DNA from: a virus
Direction: 5' to 3' (one strand)
DNA length: 64,000 bases
IMG/VR virus record: IMGVR_UViG_3300043446_004155
Location: 18,625 to 82,624 of that record
The notes under the pieces were generated by a model. That model was given only the letters and a program-made list of their open reading frames with translations, had not been told where the DNA came from and did not search any database. A program made the translations under genes and the position numbers. This document shows positions 1,161 to 62,014 of the stretch, in pieces. How positions within the stretch are numbered: the stretch's first letter is position 1; every line of letters starts with the position of its first letter.

Positions 1161-1172
1161 GTGTTTATTGAT
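1161..1172 (+). CDS. Major capsid protein exon 1 (GTG TTT ATT GAT = MFID)
   Basis: SD GGAGG at 1146-1150; exon ends in U at the predicted 5' splice site; joins in frame to exon 2. Confidence 0.85.
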
Positions 1173-1174
1173 AG

Positions 1175-1729
1175 CTAGTTCAGATCCTGGTAGGTATGAC
1201 CTTTCAAGATTTGGTAAATAGCTCCGTGGTTACAGTCAAACTTTTCAGCAATCTTTCGATACGAGAGTCCTGCTTCTTTTAAAGCTTTGATTTGAATCAC
1301 GTCTTCCGAAGAAAACTTTCTCAAAGTCTTTTTCGGTTTCCCTTTACTGGCAAAGCCATTGTTTTTATAACAACCGGTTTCCCAGGCTCTTGTTAAGTTT
1401 TCTTGTTTGGTAACGATCTCAAGATTGTCAAGTCGATTATTCCTCTTGTCATTATCTTTGTGATCAACTTGAAGGGAAAAGTTACTGGTTCCATGAGAAC
1501 GCAGATCTAATCCCAAAAAAGCTACAGCCATCAAGACGTGAAGATGAAAACGTTTTCTCTTCCCATCAACAAGAACTGAAATACGGTCATAAACACTGGT
1601 TGAGCGAATAGGGATCTCTTGAAAATATTCTTGATTATCGGGATCAAGTTGTTTTTCAAAAGCTTTCCCCTCTTCCGTTAAGTAAAGATTACCAAATCCA
1701 GGAACAAGTTTTGGATTCATGTTGTTCAT
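1175..1729 (-). CDS. Intron-encoded HNH homing endonuclease with C-terminal HTH, antisense to the intron (alternative start 1753)
   Basis: HVLMAVAF..VDHKDNDKRNNRLDNLE HNH_3 motif; LSYRKIAEKF HTH; AT-rich. Confidence 0.88.
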   Translation of the reverse strand: MNNMNPKLVPGFGNLYLTEEGKAFEKQLDPDNQEYFQEIPIRSTSVYDRISVLVDGKRKRFHLHVLMAVAFLGLDLRSHGTSNFSLQVDHKDNDKRNNRLDNLEIVTKQENLTRAWETGCYKNNGFASKGKPKKTLRKFSSEDVIQIKALKEAGLSYRKIAEKFDCNHGAIYQILKGHTYQDLN

Positions 1730-1743
1730 AAACAAGTTTCCAA

Positions 1744-1772
1744 AGCGTAGCATGCCTCAACTGAACGCTCAA
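1744..1772 (-). promoter_or_regulatory. Putative sigma70-type promoter for the intron HEG
   Basis: TTGAGC-N17-TACGCT with extended TG, 14 nt before ATG 1729. Confidence 0.45.
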
Positions 1773-1996
1773 CGTTGTCACCCCACCGAGCAATCGATGG
1801 GTGCAAACCGGATGAATTCAGGGAAGCCCTAACGTTAAGACGAGGGTAATCCTGAGCCAAGCCAATCAAGCGTGATTGGAAGGTGCAGAGACTACTGGGT
1901 GTAACACGACCTTGTTACGTAATACCAGATTTAGCGTCCGGCATCCCACAGGGATGAAGAGATAGTCCACCCCTCTAAGAAACTAGAGACCAGGAG

Positions 1997-3148
1997 AACG
2001 ACTTTCCAAAAATTCTTGGTGCGGAACTTTACCGTCCCCACCCTGCTTACATTGCTGAAATGGCAGTGGAGCCCGTGGTCGTCCACGACTTCACCCGTCA
2101 GCCTGGTCAAACCGTTCAGTTAGACCGCTACAAGTTCTGGGGTACCCCTGGCACCAAGGATAGCCGGGAGCGTATCGCTGACCAGACTATTGGTACCGCC
2201 AACAGCCGCAACATCACCAAAGAGAAGGTGCTTGTTGTGCTGAAAGAGTACACTGGCCCTGCTGACCCGGGTGATCCGACCCAGCCTTCGACCTTCAAGA
2301 TCGCTCGTGAAACCCTGATTACCGCCCAGCGCCTGCTGCTGGACACCGGTAACCTCAACATGTTCCACCAGTCGATCGGCAGCCTGACTCTGCTCGACGA
2401 CTATCGCCGTTGGCGTGACCGCGTGTTCATCGATGAACTCGCTAAAGCCGAAGCCAATGGTGAAGCTTCCAGCACCCAAGGTGGTTACTACTTCCCTGGT
2501 GGCAAGAACAAAGCTTCTAACGGTTCTATTGCTTACACTGCTGCTGAATACGCCGCTCAGGTGCAGCAGTTCCAGGTGCGTACCGACCTGCTGACCGTTG
2601 TTAAGGACCTGCGTAAGCGCAACGTTCCTACCTTCGCTGATGGTCTGTATCGTTGCATCTGCGATCCCACCTTCATGATGCACCTGCGTCGTGATCCTGA
2701 CTTCCGTGAGATCGCTCGTTACAGCGGCAACCCTGGCCAAGGCATGTACATGGGCAACCCCATGATGCCTAACAACGCCAGCTTCTACATGGGTCCCCAA
2801 GCTGGTCAGGGTTACTTCCTGGCTGGTGAGCCTGTGATGCCGACTGGTGTTCAGTTTGAAGGTGTGAAGTTCTTCGAGTCGACCAACTTCCCGACCAAGA
2901 CTGTTAGCGCAAGCTTCACCGACACCCCTTCGTACAGCAACCAAGAAGTTGCCCAAGGTTACTTCTTCGGTCCTCAGTCCATCGGTGTTGGTATCGGCGG
3001 TCCTAACGCTCAGGTGCTCATCAACAACAACGATGACTTCAGCCGTTTCATCATCCTGATCTGGCAACTGTACGCTGGCTTCGAGATCCTGAACAAGGAC
3101 TTCGTAACCACCGCCTTCAGTTTTGTTTCTGACGACGGCACCATCTGA
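1997..3148 (+). CDS. Major capsid protein exon 2 (N4-gp56-like; spliced product ~387 aa)
   Basis: Open frame NDFPKILGAELYRPHP... is continuous with the ORF at 2060; strong codon bias; PGQTVQLDRY motif typical of capsid N-terminal region. Confidence 0.85.
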   Translation, partial: NDFPKILGAELYRPHPAYIAEMAVEPVVVHDFTRQPGQTVQLDRYKFWGTPGTKDSRERIADQTIGTANSRNITKEKVLVVLKEYTGPADPGDPTQPSTFKIARETLITAQRLLLDTGNLNMFHQSIGSLTLLDDYRRWRDRVFIDELAKAEANGEASSTQGGYYFPGGKNKASNGSIAYTAAEYAAQVQQFQVRTDLLTVVKDLRKRNVPTFADGLYRCICDPTFMMHLRRDPDFREIARYSGNPGQGMYMGNPMMPNNASFYMGPQAGQGYFLAGEPVMPTGVQFEGVKFFESTNFPTKTVSASFTDTPSYSNQEVAQGYFFGPQSIGVGIGGPNAQVLINNNDDFSRFIILIWQLYAGFEILNKDFVTTAFSFVSDDGTI

Positions 3149-3181
3149 TAAAGATATAAATCCAACTTAACGGAGAAATAA

Positions 3182-3979
3182 ATGTCCTACTTGTCTTCTA
3201 AAAAGATCTATCCAGGTAACTGGACCAACGCCCTGAACGGCTGGTACAAGAACATTGATGTCGCCGCTGACGGCAGCAATGACTATTCCAAGGGTGGCCC
3301 CACTTCGGTGCTGGCCGTCCCTGGTTACCGCTACTTCCAGCAGCGTGGTTACGCCGTGGTGGATTGGGCCTCTGGTGATGCTGCCACCAAGGGCCAAACC
3401 CTGAACGTGATCGTTCCTTCGCCTTACCGCCAGGACGACACCCGCCCCGACATCACCGGCATGGTGATCTCTGGTAATGCCACCCAACCTGCTTTCGTGT
3501 ATCGCGCTGCGATCTCGGTTGCTTCTGGCTGGGGCGATGGTCGTGTTGCCACCGGCATCTATGCTGCCACCGGTAACATCATCACTTTCGGTGCTGGTCC
3601 TACCGCCGTGACTGGCGTGGGTGAGCCTATTGCTCAGGCCAACCTGACCTCCACCACTTCTGGTGACGCCGCCACCAAGATTGTGTTCGCTGCTGGTGCT
3701 CAAGCCCTCAGCTCCACTCCGTTCCTGACCGCTACCGGCGCAACCGGCCTTGGTCCTTCTGGTGTGTATAAGTCTCTGACTGGCGCTACCACCTTTAAGG
3801 TCTTCGCTCGTGGTGCCAACACTGACACTGGTGTGTCTGGTGGTATCTACCTCGCTGACGGTGATTACAACGCTGGTCTCAAGGGTTACCTCGTGGTTGA
3901 AGTGTGCTACATCCAACCTGATGATGCACCTGGCTACGAAGATATCGAAGAGTACATCATTGGCCGCACTGTTAGCTGA
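3182..3979 (+). CDS. Abundant virion structural protein (minor capsid/decoration or tail)
   Basis: Directly follows MCP; same highly biased codon usage; beta-rich. Confidence 0.6.
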   Translation: MSYLSSKKIYPGNWTNALNGWYKNIDVAADGSNDYSKGGPTSVLAVPGYRYFQQRGYAVVDWASGDAATKGQTLNVIVPSPYRQDDTRPDITGMVISGNATQPAFVYRAAISVASGWGDGRVATGIYAATGNIITFGAGPTAVTGVGEPIAQANLTSTTSGDAATKIVFAAGAQALSSTPFLTATGATGLGPSGVYKSLTGATTFKVFARGANTDTGVSGGIYLADGDYNAGLKGYLVVEVCYIQPDDAPGYEDIEEYIIGRTVS

Positions 3980-16680: not shown

Positions 16681-19101
16681 GTGGCCAACAGGCGGATTTC
16701 TGATCTACCAGCAATTACTTCGATCGACATCAATGATGCCGATCTATTTACTGTTGTCCACGTTGCAGAGGTTGATCCTGGTCTAAAGAATAAGCGTTTT
16801 ACGGTAGCAGAACACAAAACTTATCTAAACAATTACTACCTCCAACTCAGTGGTGGAACCATCGTCAATGATTTAGTCATTGGTGATGATCTGAGTGTTT
16901 CCGGAGATTTAACAGTCGCCCAAAACATGGCGATTGTTGGGACCGGTACATTTGGAACCCTTATTATCAGCGGTTTCACAAGCACTGGTGTTATTAGCGG
17001 TGTAACAATTACTGGTACCAATATTCTTGGTGTCAACGTCAACGGCAACAACGGTTACTTTGCGTCTCTCCAGGCACCTGCAGCAGCCCTTGGCGCAGCC
17101 ACAGCCACGACATTAAGCGGCGGAGCGATCACTGGTAACACAATTGCCGCAAGTGGAATTACCGGTCAAACAATCACTGGAAATAACGTTTTTGGTCTAA
17201 GCATCAGCGGCACCACGATCACAGGTGTTACCGGTGTTTTTACTACGTCTTTATCCGGTGCGACAATCACTGGCAATGTAGGAAACTTTGCAAATCTAAC
17301 TGGAGTTTCTGGGACCTTTACAAGCCGCCTGTCTGGTGCTGTTATCACAGGAAACACCGGTACGTTTAGCCGGATTACAGGTGTTTCTGGTGCTTTTACT
17401 TCTAACCTGTCTGGTGCCGTTATTACCGGTGTCACCGGTCAGTTTACGCAACTTAATGGAGTTACCGGCCAATTTACCGTTGTTTCTGGTACGACTGTTA
17501 CAGGTGCAACTGGTCGATTTACTAATATCACTGGCCAGAGTATTTACGGAGTCACCTTGTCGGGTGAAACCATCAATGCTTCAACTGGCAACATTCTTGA
17601 TCTCTTAACCGTTACTGGCGTTTTCCTTGACCGCCTCTCTGGTGCTGTTATTACAGGTCAAACTGGTCTATTCAATTCGTTAACAGTTGGTGGAATCAAC
17701 ATCACCGGAAGTGTCAGCGGTGGAACTGTTACCGGTACCAGTGGTCAATTCATTACCATCACTGCTCAAACCGGTATCTTTACCGATACCATCTCGATTC
17801 CTTCTATTACGACCACGGGCAATTTGTCTGCCAGTGGCGATTTAATTGTTGAAGGCAGCGGTTACATTACTTCCGGCCTTGTTGTTTCCGGAACCATCTC
17901 TGGAAACACCGTAACAGGCGAGACTTTTATCTTTAACACGGCTACTGGCTCTTCACTCAACGCCACTGGCTTAATTTCTGGTGTTTTAATTACTGGAGAT
18001 GTCATCCAGGCAGCATCTCTTACGGGTGTTACTGGTACGTTTACGTCTTTAAGCGGAGCTTCCATTACTGGAAGTACGGTTTCCGCCACCACCGGCACGT
18101 TTGTATCCGGTATTTTCACAAATCTATCGGGAACGACCGTTACTGGTGCAACTGGTTTATTTGGCAGCGTTACAGGCGCAACAGGTACCTTCACAACCAG
18201 GGTCTCTGGTGCAACCGTAACTGGCAATACAGGTCTGTTTGGAAACCTCTCTGGCATTTCCGGTACATTCACCAATCTTTCTGGTAACGCAATTACCGGT
18301 AATACGTTCAGTGGAACCGTAGGTACATTTACAACCCTTAATGCAACCTTTGTTAATTTCACCGCTACGTCAACGGGCAATATTGTTGCCAGCGGTAGTG
18401 GTATTTTTGCCTCTGGACTCTTAACAAGTGGTGATTTATTTGTCAGTGGCTCGGGTTATTTTGCGTCTGGCGTCAATATTACCGGAACCCTATCCGGCAC
18501 CACTGGAATCTTTACTGCCTTAAGTGGGGATTTAATTTCAGGTGTTTCTGGTACGTTTACAACACAACTTTCTGGCGCGTTAATTACTGGCAATACGATT
18601 CAAGCAACATCCATCACTGGTGTTTCTGGTACGTTTACAACACGACTTTCTGGCGCGTTAATTACTGGCAATACGATTCAAGCAACATCCATCACTGGTG
18701 TTTCTGGAGTTTTTACGACTCTTACTGGCACTACAATCCAATCAACAACAATTAACACATCTAGTGGCGTTCGTTGGTTAGATGCTGATGCCAGCAATTG
18801 GGTTGCTTTCCGTGCCCCCACTGTTGTTCCCGCAGATGTTACTTGGATTCTGCCATCTGGCGATGCCACGACATCAGGCTATGCATTAATCAGTGATGCC
18901 TCCGGAAACCTGACATGGGGTGAAGCCGGCGGTGGCGCAAAAGGCGGTGGCACAGACGAAGTGTTTTATGAGAACGATCAGTTTGTTACCGCGAATTACA
19001 CGATTACCACCAACAAAAATGCCATGACAGCAGGCAGGATTAGTATTAATTCTGGAATATTTGTCACAGTGCCCAGTGGCAGTAATTGGGTTGTGGTCTA
19101 A
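16681..19101 (+). CDS. Long tail fibre with Thr/Gly/Ser-rich repeats
   Basis: MANRRISDLP N-terminus; many SGAxITG/GTFT repeats; C-terminal TVPSGSNWVVV. Confidence 0.8.
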   Translation: MANRRISDLPAITSIDINDADLFTVVHVAEVDPGLKNKRFTVAEHKTYLNNYYLQLSGGTIVNDLVIGDDLSVSGDLTVAQNMAIVGTGTFGTLIISGFTSTGVISGVTITGTNILGVNVNGNNGYFASLQAPAAALGAATATTLSGGAITGNTIAASGITGQTITGNNVFGLSISGTTITGVTGVFTTSLSGATITGNVGNFANLTGVSGTFTSRLSGAVITGNTGTFSRITGVSGAFTSNLSGAVITGVTGQFTQLNGVTGQFTVVSGTTVTGATGRFTNITGQSIYGVTLSGETINASTGNILDLLTVTGVFLDRLSGAVITGQTGLFNSLTVGGINITGSVSGGTVTGTSGQFITITAQTGIFTDTISIPSITTTGNLSASGDLIVEGSGYITSGLVVSGTISGNTVTGETFIFNTATGSSLNATGLISGVLITGDVIQAASLTGVTGTFTSLSGASITGSTVSATTGTFVSGIFTNLSGTTVTGATGLFGSVTGATGTFTTRVSGATVTGNTGLFGNLSGISGTFTNLSGNAITGNTFSGTVGTFTTLNATFVNFTATSTGNIVASGSGIFASGLLTSGDLFVSGSGYFASGVNITGTLSGTTGIFTALSGDLISGVSGTFTTQLSGALITGNTIQATSITGVSGTFTTRLSGALITGNTIQATSITGVSGVFTTLTGTTIQSTTINTSSGVRWLDADASNWVAFRAPTVVPADVTWILPSGDATTSGYALISDASGNLTWGEAGGGAKGGGTDEVFYENDQFVTANYTITTNKNAMTAGRISINSGIFVTVPSGSNWVVV
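18541..18707 (+). repeat. 78-bp tandem duplication (about 2.1 copies, 26 codons)
   Basis: 18541-18618 vs 18619-18696 differ at one base (CAA/CGA). Confidence 0.9.
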
Positions 19102-41753: not shown

Positions 41754-41828
41754 CGGGGATTAGCTCAGTTTGGCCAGAGCGCTGCGTTTGGGACGCAGAT
41801 GCCGCAGGTTCAAATCCTGCATCTCCGA
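41754..41828 (+). tRNA. trnP: tRNA-Pro(UGG), CCA not encoded
   Basis: Cloverleaf; anticodon loop TTTGGGA; GGTTCAAATCC T arm. Confidence 0.95.
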
Positions 41829-59953: not shown

Positions 59954-60029
59954 TGGTAGCCGACCCCGGATTCGAACCGGGACTTGAGCGATTTTAAGTC
60001 GCTTGCCTCTGCCGTTGGGCTAGTCGGCC
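59954..60029 (-). tRNA. trnL: tRNA-Leu(UAA), intronless, short variable loop, CCA encoded
   Basis: GGCCGAC/GTCGGCT acceptor stem; AGCGA-CTTAAAA-TCGCT anticodon arm; GGTTCGAATCC. Confidence 0.92.
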
Positions 60030-60289: not shown

Positions 60290-62014
60290 TCAGGCAGATT
60301 GTAGCTGCTTCTCCCGTTGTTGCAAGACCTCACGGAAGGCTTCCGTATAAGCCTCACGTTGGTCTTCAGTGAGCCGCTGGTTAGCGACACCAGCGATTTG
60401 TTTGACGGACATCAGGCCCATGTCAACGACCAGCTGGATGGTGAATGTGGGCTTACCATCAATCATGCATAGCACGATGAAGTGCTTACGCTTCTTGATG
60501 TCATCGGCATAGTGGGATGCAGAGCCGACGCAGTTACGTACGGCCTGGCCCCACATAGCCAACTGATGTGTGTCAACAGGCTGGAAGAACGACCAGGTCT
60601 CACCATTGCGTGTAACCCTGATTGGTTCAGGGAATAGATCTTGACGCAATGATTCGTTTGGATTCTGAATCTTCCAGGACTCAGCTTGCACATAGTCATG
60701 GAACTCATTGATGCGCCACCGTTTGGGTGGTGTGAGTTCATTGCCATGGTCAAGGATACGGATTGCCATGGAGAATGTGTCATTTAGTTCATAGAATCCA
60801 ATACGTGCATAACCAACTTCTGAGTCAGGACGAAGTAAATCTTGTGATTCAAGATACTTACGCAGCATTGTGAACATCGATGCAACTGGCATGTGTTCAC
60901 GTAACCAACTAACAAATGCATTTGAGCTGGTGCTGATGCTGCTTGTACGTACTTGACTCAGCCTGATGTAACGGAGTTCTTTGTAATAGGTTTGGTAGTA
61001 ATCAAGTGGGCAGTCAGGCCATATCTTGTTAATCCAGTCAATTGAATCAATGACATGGACAAAGGTTTTAAAGCCTTGAGTAATTGGCTTGCGCTGAGTA
61101 TTACCTGGGTCACTATATGCAAGTGTGCAGCGATCAAGCTCTGCTTGTAACAGCTTCTTAATTGCTGACTTGGAAATGATGTGACTGATTCTTTCCAATA
61201 CGCAAAACGTTGATGACGGGAAGTTAGGGTTCTTATTGAATTCAATTGTTGCATTAAGTAAGTTATCAACAGTTAGACCTTGCTTTAGGTCAAAACACTT
61301 TGCCATCATCGGAGGAAGGTCGGCTGCATCAAAAATGTTCTTGCAGCGCATACGATCAAACAATCCACGGGAGTCAGACCATGTAGGCATGTCTTCCCGT
61401 AGGCTTGCTTCGTATGGACGGATGCAATGCTCAATGATCTCGCGTCCTTTCTGGCAGTAAAGGTTAAAGGCTTGCCACTGGTAGGCACGCCAGCCACTGC
61501 CTTCACTTGATTCAATGTCACCCTTGGTGATGTTCATTGAGTAAGTAAAGGTCTGGACGCCACGAGCACCTTCGTGCTCGATGCACTTATCTTTGCTGGT
61601 CCAGATGTGGTGTGGTGCAGTCTTGGCAGCAGCCGCTGTGTTCTTGAATGCGTAGGCGTGGCCGTACACATACTGATCAGCTTCCTTCTTTGGAGGAAGC
61701 CATGCTGCATACCACACCTGTTCATAGTGATACAGGATGGCAATAACTTTGAGGCGAGCCTGCGGAGTTGCTACGTCCACAGGCGTGGTAAATACTCTGT
61801 AACGATCTGGCGCAGACTGCTGATTGATGTGATCAATCGCAGCTTGCTGATCTGATTCACGCACCACGTTATGTGGGATGAGGTGCGGAATGTTACCGAG
61901 TGGGTACTTAGCTTTCTTGGTTGATGTGGTCTTAGCCTGCTTAGCCAACACCTTTAGTGTTGGGTCATAAGCCAAGAGTTCGGTTTGCAGGTTGGAGGGA
62001 AGTTGGAATTGCAT
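60290..62014 (-). CDS. PcfJ-domain protein
   Basis: EFHD...LAMWGQAVRNCVGS...FTIQL...QIAGVANQ. Confidence 0.75.
   Translation of the reverse strand: MQFQLPSNLQTELLAYDPTLKVLAKQAKTTSTKKAKYPLGNIPHLIPHNVVRESDQQAAIDHINQQSAPDRYRVFTTPVDVATPQARLKVIAILYHYEQVWYAAWLPPKKEADQYVYGHAYAFKNTAAAAKTAPHHIWTSKDKCIEHEGARGVQTFTYSMNITKGDIESSEGSGWRAYQWQAFNLYCQKGREIIEHCIRPYEASLREDMPTWSDSRGLFDRMRCKNIFDAADLPPMMAKCFDLKQGLTVDNLLNATIEFNKNPNFPSSTFCVLERISHIISKSAIKKLLQAELDRCTLAYSDPGNTQRKPITQGFKTFVHVIDSIDWINKIWPDCPLDYYQTYYKELRYIRLSQVRTSSISTSSNAFVSWLREHMPVASMFTMLRKYLESQDLLRPDSEVGYARIGFYELNDTFSMAIRILDHGNELTPPKRWRINEFHDYVQAESWKIQNPNESLRQDLFPEPIRVTRNGETWSFFQPVDTHQLAMWGQAVRNCVGSASHYADDIKKRKHFIVLCMIDGKPTFTIQLVVDMGLMSVKQIAGVANQRLTEDQREAYTEAFREVLQQREKQLQSA

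Follow-up and report, generated by a model that had tools for sequence, protein, structure and literature searches.

A putative mobile group I intron with an antisense HNH gene in the major capsid gene of an S-EIV1-like freshwater cyanophage

In mycobacteriophage LittleE (Cluster J), the gene for the major capsid protein contains a group I-like intron of ~819 bp, the splicing of which has been demonstrated by reverse transcription PCR and N-terminal sequencing (Pope et al. 2013, PMC3706429). The same authors cite lactococcal phage Tuc2009 as having a capsid intron as well. A comparable insert is present in the window analysed here, a stretch of 64,000 nucleotides at the end of an 82.6-kb IMG/VR virus record that is complete and has direct terminal repeats (IMGVR_UViG_3300043446_004155, positions 18,625–82,624). 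The closest cultured relative of this virus is the freshwater Synechococcus phage S-EIVl. The insert is very probably a functional, mobile, IA-like group I intron that interrupts the major capsid gene of a freshwater, S-EIV1-like cyanophage, and it carries an HNH homing endonuclease gene (HEG) on the opposite strand.

Like the intron of LittleE, this insert occupies ~820 bp of a capsid gene, is preceded by a U at the 5' splice site, terminates with a G, is absent from close relatives and holds an endonuclease gene on the bottom strand, ‘transcribed in the leftwards direction’ as the LittleE paper has it. However, the LittleE intron is deep within its gene, close to the site of delta-domain cleavage, whereas the one described here begins 12 nt into the gene, and the hosts are actinobacterial and cyanobacterial, respectively. 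In LittleE, furthermore, the endonuclease frame is LAGLIDADG-like according to the text of the paper and HNH according to a figure legend, the intron type is given as ‘unclear, most likely group I’, and the place of the gene in the RNA structure is not described.

Two other groups of introns bear on the locus. The nicking HNH enzyme I-HmuI is encoded in an intron of Bacillus phage SPO1 (PDB 1U3E), and in the freshwater cyanophage Pf-WMP3 an HNH gene lies on the sense strand in P6a of a self-splicing IA2 intron (PMC3428280). Introns of this type share with the capsid intron the phage IA architecture with P7.1/P7.2 and an HNH enzyme, that of the capsid intron having a putative C-terminal DNA-binding module like theirs, but they interrupt DNA polymerase genes, and their HNH genes lie on the sense strand within P6a or P8, with the ribosome-binding site (RBS) inside intron helices; in the capsid intron, the HNH gene is antisense, sits in the P1 loop and has a promoter-like element of its own. 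Among the group I introns of nuclear ribosomal DNA (rDNA), HEGs are found in P1, P2, P6, P8 or P9 and in either orientation, with Dir.S956-2, Dsq.L2066 and Ppo.L1925 as examples of antisense or P1-located genes (PMC3679873, PMC9548176). There, as would be the case here, the expression of antisense HEGs relies on an internal promoter, and the interference of antisense RNA with the host transcript is a known difficulty. Unlike the phage intron, these are eukaryotic IC1 or IE introns in rRNA genes, with His-Cys box enzymes, RNA polymerase II transcription, polyadenylation and spliceosomal introns, and their host RNA is untranslated, so that there is no interplay with a start codon. In cyanophage S-PM2, the psbA intron is reportedly accompanied by the endonuclease F-CphI and an antisense RNA, CfrI, that covers the intron–exon borders, an observation attributed to Millard and colleagues in 2010. 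That system would resemble the present one in pairing a group I intron of a highly expressed cyanophage gene with a linked homing endonuclease and an antisense RNA, and would differ in that the endonuclease gene is free-standing, downstream and on the sense strand.

Thus, introns in capsid genes, antisense HEGs and HEGs in P1 all have precedents, and the original prediction for this locus, made from the sequence alone, overstated its unusualness in the light of LittleE (PMC3706429) and the nuclear rDNA introns (PMC3679873). What is particular is that these features occur together in a cyanophage, the promoter-like element over one strand of the P1 extension, the rich natural polymorphism and the four-codon exon 1, owing to which a single ribosome footprint covers the RBS, the start codon and the 5' splice site. 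The literature search found no paper that ties S-EIV1-like phages to a capsid intron. With its very short exon 1 and an antisense endonuclease gene under a putative promoter of its own, the locus is a good model in which to study how splicing, the initiation of translation and antisense transcription can coexist in a setting like that of bacteria.

The interrupted capsid gene

The capsid gene begins with GTG TTT ATT GAT (M-F-I-D; exon 1, plus strand, 1161–1172, ending at U1172), 9 nt downstream of the Shine–Dalgarno (SD) sequence GGAGGA (1146–1151). Directly after the next codon, AGC, the frame runs into TAG (1176–1178), a stop on unspliced RNA; these elements are all found where the original prediction had placed them. 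The frame is shut before 1997 and then open from AAC 1997 to the stop codon at 3146–3148 (exon 2, plus strand, 1997–3148, 383 codons and TGA). The 824-nt intron extends from A1173 to the omega-G at 1996 (plus strand).

These boundaries follow from natural alleles. Of 80 IMG/VR loci encoding proteins closely related to the capsid protein, ~58 have no insert and read GTG TTY ATT GAT AAC GAY TTT, the predicted joined junction to the base. Because such intronless alleles read across the junction, colinear with exon 1 and exon 2, the insert is delimited as 1173–1996. An insert of 824–827 nt like that of the window is present in 13 loci, a 276-nt insert without the HEG occupies the identical site in two (L002 and L022), and six loci end inside the insert. 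The exon structure originally proposed is thus matched exactly, and the short form gives the same site. The frame of S-EIVl is uninterrupted as well (GTG TTC ATT GAT ACC GAC TTT..., translating to MFIDTDFPKILGAEL...); with this phage intronless, no isolate bears the intron. The intronless junctions read ATTGATAACGAC in the L007 type and ATTGATACCGAC in the S-EIVl type, and the intron-bearing genotype has its own signature of single-nucleotide polymorphisms in the exon, exemplified upstream of the GTG by AAACCAAG.

A second intron lineage was found via HNH relatives at 60–65% identity. It has the same layout, with a core (83–99 bits in Rfam) antisense to the HNH gene and directly 5' of a capsid homolog. 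Altogether, 40 complete introns from the two lineages were compared, 16 of them from lineage 1, that of the window; in all 40, a U precedes the 5' splice site and a G terminates the intron. The sequence GGAGGATAA is kept across all lineage-1 loci, with or without the intron, and exon 1 reads ATG TTY ATC GAT in lineage 2. The early in-frame stop is TAA in lineage 2 and a TAA seven codons in for the form without the HEG.

The predicted joined product has 387 amino acids (4 + 383), in agreement with the ~387 residues and the N-terminus anticipated from the sequence: most database homologs are 387 residues long and start with VFIDNDFPK. A minority of near-identical database proteins have 362, 377 or 379 residues and start with MAVEP or L/MGAEL. 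These entries are gene-caller miscalls, as had been foreseen for this gene, and the truncation or omission of the capsid gene by such programs affects capsid phylogenies and marker-gene surveys of a widespread lineage. In the GenBank record of S-EIVl, the intact, intronless 383-aa capsid gene (L001:2586–3737; KJ410740, about 60859–62010) is unannotated, and a minus-strand ‘hypothetical protein’ (locus 2511–3272) and a short plus-strand coding sequence (3267–3737) are annotated in its place.

The identity of the protein was decided by a fold search. The exon 2 product matches PHROG 1357 ‘major head protein’ (2.4e-16). No Pfam family is detected for the protein even at E 10, and the label PF25209, precomputed on some homologs, was not reproduced and yielded no name; a PDB sequence search with the single protein gave no match, and a PDB profile search gave capsid matches that were weak only (E 0.01–0.05). 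An AlphaFold2 (AF2) model built on 36 diverse relatives (predicted local distance difference test score, pLDDT, 82; predicted template modelling score, pTM, 0.82) has 337 Foldseek matches in PDB at E <= 0.001, of which the best-ranked are HK97-fold phage capsids without exception, led by cyanophage P-SCSP1u (E 8e-13) and followed by Pan3, Ralstonia GP4 and T7. By its predicted fold, then, the host gene of the intron encodes an HK97-fold major capsid protein. Residues 1–14 are modelled as a helix, and the N-terminal 25 residues are conserved in distant homologs, with L15 invariant down to ~25% identity. A product that starts at MAVEP would lack these first 25 residues and therefore miss the conserved N-terminal arm.

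Ribozyme core and long-range P1

An Infernal search with the Rfam model Intron_gpI (RF00028; gathering score 50) matches the window at 1748–1989 with 90.2 bits (E 9e-22), which bears out the group I core recognised in the sequence; the 276-nt form scores 92 bits. The helices, all on the plus strand, are a P2 hairpin with a GCAA tetraloop (1782–1801); P3 (1808–1814 with 1935–1941), which encloses P4, P5, P6/P6a, the 5' strand of P7 and P7.1/P7.2; P4 (1818–1823/1850–1855); P5 (1827–1846); P6/P6a (1856–1884); an invariant P7 (GACUA 1890–1894/UAGUC 1963–1967); a nested P7.1/P7.2 insertion (1895–1928); P8 (1943–1955); and P9 (1973–1988). The helices are placed from the Rfam alignment and the sequence, and in P3 and the helices that it encloses, 100% of the cells are paired. 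Across 17 natural alleles, an explicit P2–P9 structure of 62 pairs has 98.5% of its cells paired, compared with 24–40% when the partners are slid. Double-sided, compensatory changes occur in nine core pairs (three in P2, one in P6, three in P7.2 and two in P9), a number reached by none of 500 shuffles. The 38-nt insertion at 1895–1932 folds into CUGG/CCAG and GUAACA/UGUUAC, the latter with the three compensatory pairs in L066. A P7.1/P7.2 insertion is the mark of subgroup IA, and on this predicted fold the intron is classed as IA-like.

The core (1805–1988) shares 70–77% identity over ~180 nt with Vibrio phages, where the matches lie under ‘terminase-like’ genes, and with Klebsiella and Escherichia jumbo phages; shorter stretches match in a Ralstonia phage DNA polymerase gene. 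Therefore, one intron family seems to have spread over very different phages and host genes.

In the proposed P1, the last four bases of exon 1 and the first three bases of the intron (UGAU|AGC, plus strand, 1169–1175) would pair with GUUGUCA (1774–1780) in the internal guide sequence CGUUGUCA (plus strand, 1773–1780), ~600 nt downstream, and CGUU at 1773–1776 would form P10 with AACG, the first four bases of exon 2 (1997–2000). Both pairings of the original prediction are present in the sequence, and P1 covaries between the lineages. The 5' strand and the wobble at the splice site (U1172.G1777) are invariant across the 16 lineage-1 introns, and the pair between exon position -4 and the guide changes from U:A in lineage 1 to C:G in lineage 2 (guide ...GUUGUCG). 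Beyond P1, GUUCAG (plus strand, 1178–1183) pairs with CUGAAC (plus strand, 1761–1766) in a 6-bp extension that closes the loop. Among the 40 introns, this helix comes in five Watson–Crick variants, GUUCAG:CUGAAC, AUUCAG:CUGAAU, ACUCAG:CUGAGU, GCUCAG:CUGAGC and GCUUAG:CUAAGC, the last three being those of lineage 2. In L015, G1178A is compensated by C1766U over 580 nt, with a change that is synonymous in the HNH frame. The five versions of the closing helix, together with the one covarying P1 pair, are good evidence that the long-range P1 is real and under selection.

In the 276-nt form, the P1 strands are ~50 nt apart and linked via the GUUCAG:CUGAAC helix and a small hairpin. Judging from this comparison, the form without the HEG displays the native P1 arrangement, and the long form has an HNH cassette placed inside the closing helix. 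The original prediction had the HNH gene merely fill the loop of P1; in fact, its last five codons and stop are encoded on the 5' strand of P1 and the P1 extension, and the loop is closed by the extra helix.

The antisense HNH gene

The open reading frame with the HNH domain spans 1175–1753 on the minus strand. An antisense HNH gene in the P1 loop had been called correctly, but its extent of ~580 nt does not hold: ATG 1753 and ATG 1729 are unconserved between alleles and were ruled out as starts, and only ATG 1720 is shared by all 14 full alleles of the window's lineage (as GTG in L023), which leaves a gene of 181 codons and TAG (1175–1720, minus strand). The palindrome CTAG at 1175–1178 supplies both the stop of this gene and the stop for ribosomes on unspliced capsid RNA. 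The protein is I-HmuI-like: it matches Pfam HNH_3 (3.4e-10, above the cut-off), PHROG 59 (1.4e-27) and I-HmuI itself in PDB (E 7e-6 over residues 43–176, reaching the C-terminus), and its putative C-terminal helix-turn-helix scores 23.7 bits against HTH_38, under the curated cut-off of 27. The gene is intact in 14 of the 14 alleles, free of indels, and is under purifying selection (median pairwise ratio of nonsynonymous to synonymous substitution rates, dN/dS, 0.10; range 0.05–0.17). It is tied to this single insertion site in both lineages.

A promoter-like element lies on the minus strand at 1744–1772, with -35 TTGAGC (1772–1767), a 17-nt spacer that ends in TGC and -10 TACGCT (1749–1744). 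Among 24 distinct alleles from both lineages, TAnnnT follows a -35-like hexamer after 15–18 nt in 23 and is preceded by TGn in 21 (shuffle mean 3.2, maximum 8), counts that are inflated by the relatedness of the alleles; the inner bases of the hexamer vary freely. It is reasonable to regard this conserved extended -10 element, which overlaps the P1-extension strand beside the guide sequence, as a putative promoter of the HNH gene.

No terminator of the HNH transcript was identified in a generic scan. An inverted repeat, AGATAAGACAC .. GTGTCTTTATCT, is present at 1096–1120, between the upstream gene and the capsid RBS, with a compensatory change in S-EIVl (GACAA .. TTGTC). It may serve as a terminator or a processing hairpin, and the antisense HNH transcript could end there. 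A distant HNH relative (36% identity; L108:2501–3589, and L109) adjoins a same-strand group I core (60.7 bits in Rfam) on a 99-kb viral contig; this is a separate, sense-oriented element.

Mobility, mechanism and alternatives

The presence of the intron is patchy. On a tree of capsid exon 2 with 82 rows (22 with the intron and 60 intronless; the 30 nt beside the insertion site omitted), intron presence requires at least 15 state changes, at least 11 of which are forced by well-supported branches. Well-supported sisters differ in intron state in four cases, L006/L007 (with nearly identical exons), L014/L016, L008/L009 and L066/L070. The two introns without the HEG, in L002 and L022, are nested among HEG-bearing ones and keep a fragment just upstream of the HNH start, and for these reasons look like products of HEG deletion. 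As read from these alleles, all three stages of the homing cycle (intronless, HEG-less and HEG-bearing) coexist at one site. As a clean natural system, the locus lends itself to following a homing intron through its full life cycle of invasion, HEG loss and intron loss, since the three allele types coexist in abundant uncultured freshwater cyanophages, in the gene of the most abundant virion protein.

One capsid clade, with GTG TTT CTT GAT ACC GAY (MFLDTDFP), is entirely intronless (L018, L020, L021, L024–L026, L029, L034, L041 and L062); S-EIVl (L001), also intronless, has ATT GAT ACC. Since ACC in place of AAC weakens P10 and alters the likely endonuclease target, alleles with this junction may be homing-resistant. 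In a more divergent relative (L107:1877–2483, minus strand), the capsid gene contains two group I cores (82.6 and 65.7 bits in Rfam), the first at the codon-4 site and the second ~100 nt further on, after ...VVVHDF, so that the gene would consist of a 12-nt exon, a ~96-nt exon and the remainder. The capsid gene thus appears to be a hot spot for introns.

The sequence of events at the locus would be as follows. The end of exon 1 and the first intron bases pair with the distant guide, the two strands of P1 being brought together by the 6-bp closing helix, and guanosine-initiated self-splicing would link ...AUUGAU to AACGAC..., yielding the 387-aa HK97-fold coat protein that starts with MFIDNDFPK. 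Ribosomes on unspliced RNA would halt at the TAG, two codons inside the intron. The HNH gene, in the loop and on the opposite strand, is probably transcribed from its own extended -10 promoter, and its product would nick intronless capsid alleles in co-infection and so lead to homing. Occasional loss of the gene would leave the 276-nt intron, and the whole intron would be repeatedly gained and lost.

Several observations weigh against a self-splicing, homing intron. P1 has just 7 bp, including two G.U pairs, with strands ~600 nt apart, and Infernal places no P1, its local attempt being flagged as mismatched. The HNH gene lacks a clear SD sequence, generic consensus scans of the region for promoters and terminators are at chance level, and the capsid pre-mRNA could suffer interference from an antisense HNH transcript, at a cost to the phage. 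The RNA data are equivocal. Contigs from three RNA libraries join 1172 to 1997, the junction ATTGAT|AACGAC predicted for spliced RNA, but they differ from the window at 3 of the 33 bases on the exon 1 side, where they match the common intronless genotype; moreover, they are contigs, not reads, and RNA is not separable from DNA carry-over. For these two reasons, the junction contigs are not counted as evidence of splicing. The mismatched P1 of Infernal (1752–1760 with 1771–1779) was dropped in favour of the long-range one. One contig (RNA library X5, depth 4.65) joins 1996 back to 1730, a position that corresponds to about intron position 20 in the form without the HEG (after ...CCUGGU); it could be a truncated intron circle or, equally, an assembly artefact.

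The layout suggests a further, rather unlikely role for the HNH mRNA. Being antisense to the 5' strand of P1, the 5' splice site, exon 1, the start codon and the SD sequence, it might serve as a built-in regulator of the capsid gene. During HNH transcription, the capsid pre-mRNA would be neither spliced nor translated; late transcription would then swamp the HNH mRNA, which would turn capsid synthesis on and silence HNH expression. Because exon 1 has only four codons, an initiating ribosome and P1 would be mutually exclusive, so that splicing would be obligatory before translation.

One unlikely alternative is that the ribozyme is not autonomous and that efficient splicing in the cell depends on a helper, be it an RNA chaperone, a phage or host protein or a ribosome that pauses at the early stop, because P1 has to form across a 600-nt loop that the antisense HNH mRNA could sequester. 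Splicing of the T4 td intron is affected by translation and chaperones, and the P1 of the capsid intron, short, wobble-rich and parted from its guide by the HNH cassette, could call for such assistance; the early in-frame stop is conserved (TAG, TAA and a later TAA in the short form), as if ribosome placement mattered. Yet the core holds all the elements of self-splicing IA introns and scores high in Rfam, the closing helix with its five covarying variants looks like an RNA-only answer to the distance, and related phage IA introns, such as that of Pf-WMP3, self-splice in vitro (PMC3428280).

A splicing intron whose HNH gene is kept for another job, such as the exclusion of competing phages or aid in DNA packaging, and no longer for homing, is improbable. 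Intron endonucleases that serve phage competition are known, and purifying selection on the gene is strong (dN/dS 0.10) and long-lasting, given that the lineages are just 60–65% identical. The gene is optional nonetheless, being absent from most relatives and lost from two that have kept the intron; it is always bound to one insertion site, and patchiness among near-identical capsid genes is what homing predicts. Finally, a splicing-dead relic, with the capsid protein made from the internal ATG 2060 (MAVEP) minus its first 25 residues, is hardly credible even though gene callers yield exactly such proteins (362 aa) and the junction contigs in the RNA libraries are not tied to the window allele, considering that P1, its extension, P2, P6, P7.2 and P9 are maintained by compensatory changes, that all intron-bearing alleles conserve exon 1, the SD sequence and the frame between 1997 and 2059, that distant homologs conserve the N-terminal arm, that ATG 2060 has no SD sequence in front, and that 40 intron-bearing alleles are found in uncultured phages, among them the present one, whose genome is complete and has terminal repeats.

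Outside the capsid locus, the phage genome contains two tRNA genes detected with Rfam, at 41754–41828 of the window on the plus strand (65.4 bits) and at 59957–60029 on the minus strand (55.1 bits).

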